Shown piece after piece: positions 66 through 15,957 of a stretch of 64,000 bases of DNA. The position numbers were made by a program. The first letter of the stretch is position 1; each line of letters opens with the position of its first letter. Location of the stretch: assembly GCF_006345805.1 (NCBI RefSeq), contig NC_043012.1:14632001-14696000 (forward strand). The letters are read 5' to 3'. The DNA comes from Octopus sinensis (lineage: Eukaryota).

Positions 66-3000
66 TAGTTTGACTCAGGTTCAGTCTTATTCCTGATATG
101 TTGGTAGCGGGTTACTACCTGTAACCTAAGGCACCCACAAGTTTTCAGCAGTCTTTCAACTGTTTAGAACCCTCCTGAAAATCTTTGCTGTCCCTAAGAG
201 ACAAACTTTCTGTAGGAGCTCCTCAATCTCATTCAGCCTTTTGTCTATAGCTTTGCTTACTTTTCCCAACGCACCAATTATTATAGGCACGACCTTTACA
301 GTTCTCAGACTCCAAATTTTTCCGATTTCAAATTTTAAGGGATTTTATTTTTTATACTTTCGTCCCCTTTCTTTACGATCCAGGATCAAACGGGTATGAT
401 GAGTCGATTAGTAAGCAACTTCGCTTTTCCTTATCTATAATTGTTATGTCCGGTCTATTATTTTCTAACTTCTTGTCCGTTTGAGTAGGAAAGTCCCACA
501 AAATCTTAAGCCGTCGCTACGTTCTGAGTTCAAATTCCACCGAGGCCGACTTTGCTTTCACCCTTTTGGGGTCGATAAATCAAGTACCGGTTGAAAACTG
601 TGGTCGATGTAATCGACACATCCCCTCCCCTAGAATGATTGCCCTTGTGGAAAAATTTGAAACCATTATTATTACTATTATTATTATTATCATCATCATC
701 ATCATCATCATCATTATTATTAAGGCAGCAAGCTGGCAGAAACGTTAGCGCGCCGGGTGAAATGCTTAGCAGTATTTCGTCTGCCGTTATGTTCTGAGTT
801 CAAATTCCGCCGAGGTCGACTTTACCTTTCATCCTTTCGGGGTCGATAAATTAAGTACCAGTTACGCATTGGGATCATGTGATCGACTTAATCCCTTCTG
901 TCTGTCCTTGTTTGCCCCCTCTATGTTTGTCCCCTTGTGGGCAATAAAGAAATAAGAATTGCTAGCACGCTGGTCGAAGTGCTTGGCGGTATTCCGCCCC
1001 GTCGCTACGTTCTGAGTTCAAATTCCGTCGAGGTCGACTTTGCCTTTCGTCCTTTCGGAGTCGATAAATTAAGTACCAGTTGCGCACTGGGGTCGATATA
1101 ATCGACTATCCCTCTCCTCCAAATTTCAGGCCTTATGCCTATAGTAGAAATGATTATTATTATCTGGGAAATGTTTTCGATTTGTGAAAATACACGTCAT
1201 TTTGATTACCTCCGAATTTCGGAAATAAATAAACATTGTAATAAATTGTCCTATTTTTCAGTTCCATTTTGGATTGATCCCAGCAAAGGAAATATTAGGA
1301 CAAGCGACATAATTGACCGAGAAACTACAGAGATGTATGAATTCAAGGTGTTTGTGAAAGATAATGGTCTTCCTGCCTACACTGCCAGTTCTAACATAAT
1401 CATTTCAGTGAAAGATATCAATGACAACCCTCCTGTGTTTCTTCATGGTCAGCAGTATCAAGGAACTGTCATGGAAGATGACCAGAACCCAATAATGGGT
1501 CAAAAAGTGGAACTGGTAAGCATGGTTTTTGGAAAGACAATTCCGGTTGTTTTTTTTTATTTGTTTATTTTTTTACTTATATCAGTCGGTTGACTGCAGC
1601 CCTGCTGGAGCACCGCCTTCAAATTTTTTTAGTTGAACAAATCGACCCCAGAACTTATTTTTTTAAGTCTAGAACTTATTTTATCGGTTTCTTTTGCCGA
1701 ACCGCTAAGTTACGGAAATGTAAACACACCAACACCAGTTGTCAAACGGTGGGGGGGGGGGTAAACACAGACACAAAGACACACACACACAGACATATAT
1801 ATATATATATATATACGACGGGCTTCTTTCAGTTTCCGTCTTCCAAATCCACTCACAAGGCTTTGGTCGGTCCCGAGGTTATAGTAGAAGGACAGCTGCC
1901 CAAGTGCTGAGAGAGACTGAATCCAGAACCATGTGGTTGGAAAGCAAGCTTCTTACCACAGGGCCAAGTCTGTGGCTAATCGAATATTCGTATGAAGTTT
2001 ATATCATAAGAAGTTTTTTACCACCCACATGGTTCCGGGTTCAGTCCCACTGCGTGGTACCTTGGGCAAGTGTCTTCTACTATAGCCTTGGGCCAACCAA
2101 AGCCTTGTGAGTGGATTTGGTAGACGGAAACTGGAAGAAGCCCGTCGTGTGTGTGTATATATATATATATATATGTGTGTGTGTATATATTTGTGTGTCT
2201 GTGTTTGTCCCCCCACCATTGCTTGACAACCGATGCTGGTGTGTTTGTGTCCCCGTTACTTAGCGGTTCGGCAAAAGAGACCAATAAAATAAGTACTGGG
2301 CTTACAAAAGAATAAGTCCCATGGTCGAGTTGTTCGATTAAAGGCGGTGCTCCAGTATGGCCGCAGTCAAATGACTGAAACAAGTAAAAGAGTAAAAGAG
2401 TAAAAAAGAGTAAAGTAATTAATGAGGAAATATTTATAGAAACCCCGTTATGCAAAACTGAATGTGGAAAAGGGATTCTTCCGGTTTAAGTAAGACGTTT
2501 GTAATGATTTCTAGTATGTAGTAACATATTTCTTTCTACTATAAACACAAGGCCTGAAATTTTTGCTGGGAGGGAGCCAGTCGAATACATAGACACCAGT
2601 GCTTAACTGGTACTTATTCTATCGACCTCAAAAGGATAAAGTGCAAAGTCTATCTCTGTGGAATTTGAGCTCAGAACGTAAAGCTGGAAGGAATGTCGCT
2701 AAGCGTATTGTCCGGCCAATGGACGATTCGGTCACCAAGCGTTTTGTCCGGCCAATGGACGATTCGGTCACCAAGCATTTTGTCCGGCCAATGGACGATT
2801 CGGTCACCAAGCGTTTTGTCCGGCCAATGGACGATTCCCTCACCAAGCGTTTTGTCCGGCCAATGGACGATTCGGTTACCACCCGGTTTAATAGAGCTTC
2901 AATTTAAATTTTGAGCTTCAATTTAAATTGATATACTTGTTGTTATTTAGCTCCAAGTCAGCCCTGATTAATGAGATGCACATACCCTTCAAAATCCCCT

Positions 3001-3102
3001 CAGCAGTATAGATTTTAGTCTAGTAATTATTTTATCAAACCCTATTTTTCAAATCATTAAGTTAAAGGACATAAAGAGACACACAGAAACGGTCACAGAA
3101 CA

Positions 3103-3145
<43 letters not shown>

Positions 3146-3194
3146 CATACACACACACACATGCATACACACACACACACAAACACACATGCAT

Positions 3195-3225
<31 letters not shown>

Positions 3226-3503
3226 TGCACACACACACATGCATACACACACACATGCATACACACACACACATGCATACACACACACACACATGCATAC
3301 ACACACACACACATGCATACACACACACACACACACACACCATTTTAAATATGTTTCAGCTATATTCGAACCCGTCACAAAGCCATTCACTGTAATTTGT
3401 TATGGAGAAAATTCCTCACTGTAGTCAGTAAGGCGGGAAGAACATCGAGTCACAAATGCACAAGCATACATAAATACATAAATGCACAAAAACGAATAAC
3501 TTT

Positions 3504-3568
<65 letters not shown>

Positions 3569-14132: not shown

Positions 14133-14171
<39 letters not shown>

Positions 14172-14200
14172 ATATGCATATATTTATATATTATTTATAT

Positions 14201-14233
<33 letters not shown>

Positions 14234-14598
14234 ATAGATATAGATATAGATATATGTATGTATACACACACACATAGGCGCAGGAGTGGCTGTGTGATAA
14301 GTAGCTTGCTTACCAACCACATGGTTCTGGGTTCAATCCCACTGCGGGGCACCTTAGGCAAGTGCCTTCTACTGCAGCCTTCGGGTGACCAAAGCCTTGT
14401 TAGTGAATTTGGTAGATGGAAACTGAAACTGCTGGTGTTTACGTCCCCGTAACTAAGCGGTTCGGCAAAAGAGAAAGACCGATAGAATAAGTACTAGGCT
14501 TACAAAGAATAAGTCCTGGGGTCGATTTGCTCAACTAAAGGCGGCGTTGACTAAAGGCCACAGTCGAATGACTGAAACAAATAAAAGAGTAAGGAGCA

Positions 14599-14652
<54 letters not shown>

Positions 14653-15957
14653 CGTTTTGCTTTTTGTATATACACGTAGTTAAACTTTGCCTTTTTTCGA
14701 TATTTTTTAATTATAATTTTTTTTAATCTCATTTCATTTTTTTTTTTTTTGGTTAGATTCTTTTTTCAATAATGTAAATCATTTTTAGAACAATGGATCT
14801 CGAAGTACACATAAAGCTATAAATAATAGCATACAAATATTGAGTTGAAAACTCTGTTTAACTAGAAAACAAAATCGAAGGAACCCCTATCATGTCTACA
14901 GGATATGGAAGCTCATGTCCCACGGGCGACCTTTGACATTTTCTTTCTAAAAAGTTTTTAAACCCAATTTTTACTATTTATAGCTCTATGTGTGCTTCGA
15001 GATTCATTATTCTAAGAACAAAAACAGAATTTTTACGTTCTCTCGAAAATTTATAAATTTTTATGATGCTTTTTTTTTCTTTTTTCGATTTTCGATTTCT
15101 TTTCTAGTGCCTTTCACGCTTAAAAGCGATGGTTCCATAATAACAACGGAAGTTATTGATAGGGACGCTGGCTACGAACATTTTAGATTTACAGTTCATG
15201 CCACCGATACGGGCAGCCCTCCGCACAACACCAGTCAGGAAGTGGGAATCATCGTCAATGACATCAACGACAACCCGCCACATTTTACAATGGAAACCTA
15301 CCAACACATGGTCTCCACTCACTTCCCTGGTTCCACTATCGTTGCCACGCCGTTTGCGTTCGACGATGTCGACAAAACGGACTCTGTGTATCAGTACAAA
15401 CTTCATGGAAAAAATCCGGGATATTTTTATATTAACGACCAAACAGGGGTTGTAAGGACCACCAATTTGGCCCGGAATTTGAAGGCTGGTATGATGGAAT
15501 TCACCATTGTTGCACAGGACATGTACAATAAAAGCTTGACAGCTGAAGCTAAGCTAATAATCCGAGTTATGAAGAAAGCTCCGCAGAAGAAATTTTGCTG
15601 CCGTGTCCCCTGTTGATGTAAATTATTGCTAAATTTGAATAAATCTCCAACCACATTGACAATTATAATTACCCACTTCTACGAGGTCATTAATTAAAAA
15701 TCTACGATCGAAACAATCATATATGTAAAGGTTTTACAGCTGACCATTAAAATGTTTGCCGTTAGGATGTTTATAAACTGAAGTTTTCAAACAAACACAC
15801 ATTGCACGCACGCACCCACGCACACCCAAATACATGTGCACACGTCCATACTTATATATAAGCAATCATGTGTGTGTGTTCTGTAAAACAAGGACAAACG
15901 CCTTTTTGTGCAAAGTGTTCAATACGTACTTGTCGAGTTTGGTAAAGAGTATATATA

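Follow-up and report, generated by a model that had tools for sequence, protein, structure and literature searches.

A cadherin is, almost by definition, regarded as a membrane protein, one that links cells to one another and to the cytoskeleton. Clustered and delta protocadherins possess six to seven extracellular cadherin (EC) repeats, with an ectodomain mostly encoded by one exon and followed by a transmembrane segment and a cytoplasmic tail. T-cadherin has five EC repeats, and its mode of attachment, glycosylphosphatidylinositol (GPI) anchoring, needs a hydrophobic C-terminal signal. Even this exception is still lipid-anchored, and the abstract of one paper describes T-cadherin (CDH13) as a GPI-anchored protein (PMC13659743). 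Here we describe a cadherin gene found at the beginning of a 64,000-nucleotide stretch of the Octopus sinensis genome (contig NC_043012.1, positions 14,632,001 to 14,696,000, forward strand; hereafter the window), whose last five coding exons encode EC repeats followed by a short, basic, cysteine-bearing tail and a stop codon. The encoded protein almost certainly ends there, with neither a transmembrane nor a cytoplasmic part. Judged from its sequence, the gene belongs to a family of giant secreted lophotrochozoan cadherins that share a conserved C-terminal module. Taken as a whole, the reading that the window holds the 3′ end of a gene for a giant, secreted, cadherin-repeat-only protein with a disulfide-linking tail appears moderately probable.

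The comparison with the described systems is instructive on several points. The family shares with FAT and FAT4 the very long chains of EC repeats, and proteins of this type are its best matches outside the family (25-32% identity); it differs from them in having no EGF, laminin-G, transmembrane or cytoplasmic domain, and in possessing an N-terminus of its own, starting with C[VHL]QF, as well as a terminal EC repeat with a cysteine tail. With T-cadherin the family has in common a cadherin ectodomain devoid of a membrane-spanning part, whereas the octopus tail is 15 residues long, basic, non-hydrophobic and ends in CCRVPC, and the family protein is 5-8 times longer. A GPI anchor was rejected on hydropathy, the tail MKKAPQKKFCCRVPC being short and basic, with no hydrophobic window. 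Also rejected was a clustered or delta protocadherin, considering the five exons over 14 kb, and the 19-35 EC stretches and the lack of a transmembrane segment in the orthologues; an earlier note, made from the window sequence, had already set the gene apart from clustered protocadherins, and about 4.5 EC repeats spread over five exons bear this out.

Exon structure and the end of the coding sequence

The DNA of the window is AT-rich and repeat-rich (29-44% GC, 0 N). Five open stretches with cadherin-like translation on the + strand, spanning 1262-15616, are the exons E1 to E5. Their bounds derive from a base-by-base reading, and the exon translations were searched singly, not as one joined five-exon protein. 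The features of the gene, in window coordinates, are the following.

1262..1515, + strand: exon E1, second half of one EC repeat, DINDN linker and start of the next repeat; AG acceptor, GTAAGC donor, Pfam Cadherin E value 2.3e-7
6429..6602, + strand: exon E2, middle of an EC repeat, phase 0/0; AG acceptor, GTAATG donor, Pfam Cadherin E value 2.8e-9
8594..8849, + strand: exon E3, end of an EC repeat, DVNDH linker and first half of the next repeat; AG acceptor, GTTCGC donor
13404..13700, + strand: exon E4, second half of an EC repeat, atypical linker and first half of the next repeat; AG acceptor, GTAAGT donor, Pfam Cadherin E value 2.7e-8
13523-13564, + strand: atypical linker of E4 between two EC repeats, NAPHMVYNDYPPKF in place of DxNDNxPxF, kept in orthologues of cephalopods and gastropods
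15108..15616, + strand: exon E5, terminal coding exon, with the end of the penultimate EC repeat, a DINDN linker, the last EC repeat, the tail and the stop; AG acceptor after a tract of 83% pyrimidine, Pfam Cadherin E value 7.4e-12
15287..15568, + strand: last, atypical EC repeat, with no DRE and no DxNDN, keeping FDDVD
15344-15373, + strand: family signature ATPFAFDDVD of the last EC repeat, from sequence reading
15569..15613, + strand: C-terminal tail, a basic variable linker followed by CCRVPC (15596-15613)
15614..15616, + strand: stop codon TGA, 15 codons past the last EC repeat; orthologous proteins terminate at the same residue
15638..15643, + strand: AATAAA, a likely polyadenylation signal from its position, 22 nt past the stop

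AG serves as acceptor in all five exons, after tracts with 61-83% pyrimidine, and all four internal donors start with GT (GTAAGC, GTAATG, GTTCGC and GTAAGT). The exon phases are compatible, with a codon for G split between E3 and E4 and a codon for V split between E4 and E5, and orthologous proteins carry the same residues at these positions (...IETG/VLTLLEG... and ...DEPY/VPFTLK...). In particular, E3 ends with a single base, G, of its split codon before a weak donor, GTTCGC, and this junction is confirmed by the continuity of the orthologues (...IETGVLTLLEG). E1, which enters in phase 1 and exits in phase 0, is collinear with residues 1837-1931 of the Octopus vulgaris protein, and E2 corresponds to its residues 1932-1991. 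The window exons are 94-99% identical to this protein in tblastn high-scoring segment pairs (HSPs) that partly extend into intron, and E5 is 99.4% identical to its C-terminus over 169 residues. The Pfam Cadherin family (PF00028) matches all five exon translations, with E values from 7e-12 to 1.8e-4; four lie above the curated cut-off, and the match of E3 (1.8e-4) lies under it. The exons total 1490 nt, or about 496 codons, encoding about 4.5 EC repeats over 14 kb. In other words, splice sites, phases and domain matches agree with the earlier note, which had read here five exons joined in frame with a product of this size.

The repeats encoded by E1 to E5 possess the calcium-binding motifs expected of cadherins, that is, DxNDN-type linkers and DRE or DRD, which are missing only at the linker of E4 and on the C-terminal side of the last EC repeat. 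Specifically, the linkers read DINDN in E1, DVNDH in E3 and DINDN in E5, with the atypical sequence in E4. The latter is kept in cephalopods (NAPHMVYNDHAPKF) and is recognisable in gastropods (SAPDLQYNDYPP and RAPYFDFNDHPP); it may represent a calcium-poor or flexible joint placed two repeats before the end of the protein. Cysteines are few, three out of 493 exon-encoded residues, and all of them fall inside the last six residues. The absence of DRE and DxNDN from the last repeat, proposed in the earlier note, holds on inspection of the sequence, though FDDVD is retained; the same is true of the short tail with its stop and AATAAA, the 15 codons ending ...KKFCCRVPC-stop. As AATAAA occurs 60 times on the + strand of the 64 kb, the chance of meeting one in any 26-nt span is about 2%.

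Whether this stop is the genuine end of the protein was addressed through its relatives. A search with E5 among longer proteins gave 70 matches out of 461 candidates, the best five with 49-95% identity and 93-100% coverage: the Octopus bimaculoides protein A0A0L8GQ41 (95%), two cephalopod-like proteins of 1220 and 649 aa translated from spliced transcripts (73-75%), and the gastropod proteins named 'protocadherin Fat 4-like' of Gigantopelta aegis and Haliotis rubra (49-50%). A further search among still longer proteins gave 97 matches out of 1782 candidates, and the three best long ones, of 2342, 2752 and 3452 aa, belong to O. vulgaris, Argonauta hians (a partial model) and Haliotis asinina, respectively. 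Each of the eight orthologues terminates 9-15 residues past the last EC repeat, in a tail that bears cysteine. CC[RK]VPC followed by the stop is found in each of the six cephalopod rows (O. vulgaris, O. bimaculoides, Argonauta, the two transcript proteins and the window), and the gastropod orthologues end in ...SPCK or ...NSTC. The conservation of CCxxxC-stop among relatives, which the earlier note had put forward for checking, is therefore found in three named cephalopods and two transcripts, with related tails beyond them, and no orthologue has a normal transmembrane segment: none of the eight continues past the last repeat into anything resembling one.

The two transcript proteins are encoded on contigs of 7363 and 2056 nt that run uninterrupted over all four exon junctions and end with CCRVPC. 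Since the contigs are continuous over junctions that are parted by 14 kb of intron in the window, these proteins must come from spliced RNA, and at the level of sequence they confirm both the exon junctions and the tail of the octopus gene. Moreover, the cephalopod linkers ahead of CC[RK]VPC vary (MKKAPQKKF, MKKF, MQRPTGKKF, IQSKQGRKVG, MQTKQGRKST). With respect to A0A0L8GQ41, the window and O. vulgaris have five additional tail residues, APQKK, in the region 15575-15595 of the window; this insertion is an in-frame indel of 15 nt flanked by AAGAAA repeats, which leaves CCRVPC-stop intact. Because motif and frame are kept despite the variation of the linker and the in-frame indel, the end of the tail does not behave as intron sequence. 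The same O. bimaculoides protein contains about 45 extra residues between E2 and E3 that the other orthologues lack; by eye these resemble an intronic open reading frame (ORF) at 6963-7211 of the window and so probably represent a false exon prediction.

Downstream of the stop the window yielded no HSP in tblastn with eight family proteins, nor did it anywhere else beyond the five exon sites. Out of the 93 + strand ORFs of at least 45 aa between 15617 and 32700, one has a Pfam match, which is to a hAT transposase and not to cadherin. In 27 of the 93 a hydrophobic 19-mer occurs by chance, so that hydropathy cannot rule out a hydrophobic exon downstream; it is the orthologues that rule it out. 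Specifically, with a criterion of a 19-residue window of mean Kyte-Doolittle value at or above 1.6, none of the eight orthologues, all N-terminally incomplete, has a hydrophobic window, and by the same measure three of four cadherins outside the family do have one. Accordingly, the claim that no hydrophobic or cytoplasmic exon lies before the next gene, CCDC81, stands by way of the orthologues and not by the hydropathy of the downstream DNA, and CCDC81 itself lies on the minus strand. A transmembrane helix and a cytoplasmic domain of FAT type are both lacking, given the stop 15 codons past the last EC repeat and the eight orthologues without a hydrophobic window. Among the matches of E5 is also a cadherin of 1794 aa with a signal peptide and, at its extreme C-terminus (residues 1768-1794), a strongly hydrophobic stretch resembling a signal for GPI attachment; having no ATPFA signature, it was rejected as a member of the family.

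A family of lophotrochozoan cadherins

The last EC repeat and the tail, 109 aa, were searched with phmmer against 1.84 billion representative proteins, giving 403 matches at E ≤ 1e-3, of which 150 were listed. Among the latter, 22 with the match at or near their own C-terminus, or in a short protein, were inspected, and all fetched proteins were later scanned for patterns. The chiton Liolophura sinensis has a protein of 4358 aa (XP_064618435.1) with a signal peptide, no other hydrophobic segment and the end ...CCCVVPC. In the brachiopod Lingula anatina, a protein of 2903 aa (XP_023931546.1) shows a signal peptide, no transmembrane segment and CGCCLVRC followed by 36 basic, tyrosine-rich residues. 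The annelid Owenia fusiformis has two proteins, of 1221 and 1275 aa, both with a signal peptide, one of which ends in ...FECR. In the limpets Lottia gigantea and Patella vulgata the ends are ...KDNC and ...NNSC, and about a dozen further fragments show ends such as CCCKVPC, CCCLVPC, CCCKPPC, CPCCRVFC and CCCLVYC. Compared with the window, E5 is 37-53% identical in chiton, Lingula, Haliotis and Owenia.

In an alignment of 26 C-termini, the last EC repeat carries the signature (V/I)ATPFA(F/Y)DD(V/I)D. One column holds the first tail cysteine of 24 of the 26 rows, the exceptions being the two of Owenia, and 15 rows have a cluster of at least three tail cysteines. Scanning the fetched proteins, the cysteine-cluster pattern was found within the last 60 residues of 17 out of 434, and none of these 17 has a hydrophobic segment save for an N-terminal signal peptide, seen in two. 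A loose form of the signature of the last repeat was found in 30 out of 438 fetched proteins; 28 of them carry a single copy, 78-144 residues from the C-terminus, and the two that have it elsewhere are FAT1a and PCDH23 of fish. The signature being single and near the C-terminus, last repeat and tail can be taken as one module that marks the family. The comparison of these sequences supports the view that the cysteine tail is a conserved and selected feature, within an architecture kept in at least three phyla. Bacterial cadherin-repeat proteins also rank high in the phmmer list, for example one of Vibrio kanaloae (3315 aa, 31 short stretches); with many short repeated matches only, proteins of this kind were rejected as relatives of the terminal module.

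In a tree of the C-terminal module (26 rows, 157 columns) the window pairs with O. vulgaris (99/81), within the cephalopods. The history of the tail on this tree needs five changes, of which the well-supported branches force just one, and an ancestry of clustered or single cysteines is not readable from it. As to structure, a profile of the last EC repeat matches 182 cadherin chains in the PDB, the best being CELSR1 (8vy2) and the others generic ectodomains; that search gave no solved relative with such a tail, and the look-alikes of the query in the ESM Atlas are generic cadherin clusters only. A homodimer prediction with two copies of last repeat and tail, in which the alignment was not used, scored 0.03 against a mark of 0.32 and counts neither way.

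Regarding the rest of the chain, five long members were compared with Pfam. They contain 35, 17, 22, 19 and 10 stretches of cadherin (22 in Argonauta), and EGF, laminin-G and cadherin cytoplasmic families are lacking in all of them; the other families above the cut-off are solely Ig-like-fold matches, in Lingula at residues of about 890-954. Matches of the Cadherin_FAT4_N type occur within the chain of family members. In the chiton protein, CxxxC pairs recur about every 320 residues (901/905, 1221/1225, 1563/1567, 1883/1887, 2720/2724, 3039/3043, 3360/3364 and 3681/3685), and the window exons, in tblastn, align with the O. vulgaris protein at comparable intervals. Such a chain seems to be built from a putative super-repeat of three EC repeats; a self-BLAST for internal periodicity gave no usable HSPs, and the periodicity is seen in the positions of the cysteines instead.

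In public databases, these gene models already bear names such as 'protocadherin Fat 4(-like)' or 'cadherin-related tumor suppressor-like'. The rows of true FAT and FAT4 proteins list PF00008, PF02210 and PF00054, which we take to be EGF and laminin-G accessions, and those of the O. vulgaris, Argonauta and Haliotis asinina orthologues do not. On the basis of sequence, then, the name 'protocadherin Fat 4-like' reflects a similarity of repeats, at 25-32% identity, and misdescribes the architecture. Full-text searches, some of them poorly aimed and with subscription journals largely outside their coverage, found no paper that describes a secreted, cysteine-tailed cadherin family devoid of a transmembrane segment, and the phrase 'secreted cadherin' refers, by the titles and opening abstract lines of the two papers that contain it, to purified vertebrate cadherins. 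The suggestion of an undescribed class is consequently to be divided: the architecture is apparently undescribed, whereas the gene models themselves are already public under FAT-type names.

Secretion and the possible role of the tail

The N-termini of the full-length relatives indicate how the octopus protein might reach the outside of the cell. In chiton, Lingula and Owenia the signal peptides are short and cleavable-looking, with hydrophobic cores of about 15-17 residues followed by VNG/Q, IQG/Q, ATA/Q and SEA/Q, and directly after them the chiton, the Lingula and the two Owenia proteins start a domain with C[VHL]QF. The partial Argonauta model starts exactly at the conserved cysteine of this domain, and the O. 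vulgaris model (2342 aa) begins about 420 residues further in than the Argonauta start. When residues 1-320 of Argonauta were compared with proteins of 1513-4816 aa, 159 matches were obtained, which besides the query were generic FAT, CDH23 and dachsous proteins at no more than 34% identity, and no cephalopod signal peptide was found among them. Secretion in cephalopods hence rests on homology, because the octopus 5′ end lies beyond the window and the O. vulgaris and Argonauta models are N-terminally incomplete. By this homology the octopus protein would start with a signal peptide, and its secretion by this route is very probable. Of the two possibilities raised by the earlier note, a secreted and an N-terminally anchored protein, the first is favoured by the short, cleavable-looking signal peptides of the full-length relatives, and an N-terminal anchor is not.

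A secreted protein ending in this way recalls a number of known systems. Cysteine tailpieces that form interchain disulfides at the C-terminus are present in IgM and IgA, in the T peptide of acetylcholinesterase with PRiMA or ColQ, in the cysteine pairs of collagen III and FACIT collagens, and in the ends of minicollagens. The likeness consists in near-terminal cysteines on a short extension at the C-terminus of a multidomain secreted protein, which in those systems determine its oligomeric state or its anchoring; there is, in contrast, no sequence relationship, and CCCxVPC is none of those motifs. By analogy, the tail cysteines would probably become bonded between molecules, as disulfides, within the secretory pathway. 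This arrangement is the most likely one for them because their number is odd (three in cephalopods, one in gastropods) and the body of the protein is almost free of cysteine, so that a full pairing within the chain is impossible. Such disulfides might connect calcium-stiffened rods tail to tail, giving covalent dimers or oligomers, or fasten them to some other component of the matrix or of the surface, with the N-terminal tips of the rods left free to bind. The role of the protein would then be that of a linker or a structural cadherin outside the cell, not that of a signalling adhesion receptor. We give the use of the tail for intermolecular disulfides an even chance, and the self-linking of cadherin rods through it would have about the same odds.

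A broader and more tentative proposal is that lophotrochozoans possess ancient giant secreted cadherins, of 20-35 EC repeats and about 100-180 nm, that would serve as building blocks of matrices instead of receptors. Their rods might be stapled by the atypical EC repeat and CCCxVPC into filaments or networks of apical matrices, as in the shell of chitons and brachiopods, spicules and chitinous secretions, and into some other secreted structure in the shell-less octopus. This we regard as possible, with doubts that outweigh the arguments in its favour. Cadherins are known from biomineral proteomes of such groups. Passages on chiton shell plates and spicules report cadherin-repeat proteins in their proteomes, including a 'protocadherin fat 4' (PMC13564323), and a further passage does so for chiton biomineral proteomes (PMC12046283). 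In addition, cadherin is listed, in the portion of the source considered, among the most abundant domains of the shell-matrix proteins of Lingula (PMC4595640), and three 'protocadherin Fat 4(-like)' genes appear in an excerpt on the oyster as candidates for larval adhesive or calcification (PMC6337334). These biomineral cadherins, known by name only, resemble the family in being extracellular and in coming from chiton and Lingula, groups with full-length, signal-peptide-bearing members; they differ in that the octopus has no shell, and the chiton text mentions, in the part considered, a cadherin 'with a transmembrane domain', unlike the family (PMC13564323).

Several observations weigh against the reading of the octopus gene as the end of a secreted, tail-linked matrix cadherin. 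The word 'cadherin' does not occur in 12 of 15 papers obtained in one search, including those on the argonaut eggcase and the Nautilus shell matrix, and in the remaining three, which are genome papers, it occurs six times for Sepia, once for Nautilus and once in the 2022 argonaut paper; on this count a role in the biomineral matrix of cephalopods is unsupported. The window does not reach the octopus 5′ end, no signal peptide is present in the O. vulgaris model, the Argonauta model is partial, and the assessment of signal peptides, transmembrane segments and GPI signals consists of a hydropathy window and of reading by eye. Nor is the cysteine cluster universal: the five named gastropods have one cysteine, one Owenia protein ends in ...FECR, and the other has a single cysteine near the end of its EC repeat, so either one tail cysteine can suffice or the function differs among lineages. 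Finally, the tree built from the C-terminal module offers little resolution, 12 of its 23 forks being open.

The alternative that survives best accepts the disulfide and changes the partner. PRiMA or ColQ hold the T subunits of acetylcholinesterase in place, and by analogy the tail of the octopus cadherin might bond to a different protein, of the membrane or of the matrix, and tether the cadherin at the surface or in a defined layer. An odd count of cysteines in the tail and a body nearly devoid of them are just as expected here; the single cysteine of gastropods, enough for one heterodimeric bond and a poor basis for a polymer, fits tethering at least as well as self-linking; and the conservation of the last EC repeat across phyla, as high as that of any other part (37-53% for E5), would fit a specific docking surface. 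Hetero- and homo-disulfides are, however, indistinguishable from sequence, and the members with four to five clustered cysteines look more like multi-bond staples, which leaves tethering a rather unlikely, though serious, candidate.

Less probable still is that the cluster is no disulfide device at all and serves for metal binding, for a lipid or thiol modification, or as an intramolecular knot capping the last EC repeat. Clustered CCC...C motifs are typical also of metal-binding and acylated sites, and the members with four cysteines, as chiton, Lingula and several others, could pair them internally. With three tail cysteines in cephalopods or one in gastropods, however, internal pairing would be incomplete; moreover, known thiol acylation takes place on the cytosolic side, whereas signal peptide and EC repeats would place the tail in the lumen or outside the cell. 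On balance we consider it improbable.

The weakest alternative, that the stop does not end the main product and stems from intron read-through or a minor isoform, with splicing near 15565 (CGA/GTTATG) to a transmembrane exon, or from a truncated copy or an assembly error, may appeal to a GT at 15566-15567, exactly where the EC repeat ends and in phase 0, and to the chance hydrophobic ORFs downstream (27 of 93), but is highly improbable, given that GTTATG is a poor donor, that tail and stop are kept in three named cephalopods and in two spliced transcripts at 73-75% identity where an intron would diverge, that the in-frame indel spares the motif, that relatives in three phyla end there with no transmembrane segment, and that the downstream DNA holds no cadherin or other gene-like match before CCDC81 converges from the opposite strand; on the conserved tail, frame and stop of the relatives, the intron read-through and pseudogene readings were rejected.

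Surrounding sequence and biological meaning

The remainder of the window contains the CCDC81 gene, which converges on the cadherin gene from the minus strand and is recognised by its HU domain 2 at 61604-62053 (E value 2e-26). Coiled-coil-like ORFs on the same strand, at 48383-48751, 41163-41564, 33743-34021 and 32706-33008, have no Pfam match and may be later exons of CCDC81. Past the cadherin gene, 3.8 kb of the intergenic space are filled by a 44-bp minisatellite of about 87 copies with 82% matches (18251-22066); the many 'GYGYYPTISFLGLSEAMDIIQLFRSWDYLRLWI' ORFs are accounted for by it, since they are translations of the repeat. Transposon remnants are also present. A decayed hAT-type element lies on the + strand at about 23293-25213, with its dimerisation domain at 24875-25213 (E value 5.6e-4, just under the cut-off) and an upstream reading frame broken into at least six consecutive ORFs. 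Mariner/Tc1-like remnants include a Mos1 HTH_48 domain at 46863-47243 on the + strand (E value 4.9e-20) and a DDE_3 fragment at 58715-58972 on the minus strand; the ORFs at 43344-43571 (minus strand) and 60598-61382 (+ strand) appear Mariner/Tc1-like by eye and have no such Pfam match.

As for the meaning of the cadherin gene, the label 'protocadherin Fat 4-like' would suggest a planar-polarity receptor to readers of lists of shell-matrix or larval-adhesive proteins, and its correction matters for this reason. The last EC repeat with its tail, only 109 residues long, is a concrete and easily testable object. The family, found in molluscs, a brachiopod and an annelid, combines a signal peptide (in its full-length members), a long array of EC repeats with little else that can be recognised, and a conserved cysteine tail that replaces the membrane anchor. 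If this is true, cadherin repeats would serve also as free extracellular rods, beyond the coupling of cells and cytoskeleton with which they are commonly identified. If, in addition, the matrix reading proved true, it would reveal a second, structural mode for cadherins, parallel to that of collagens or mucins.

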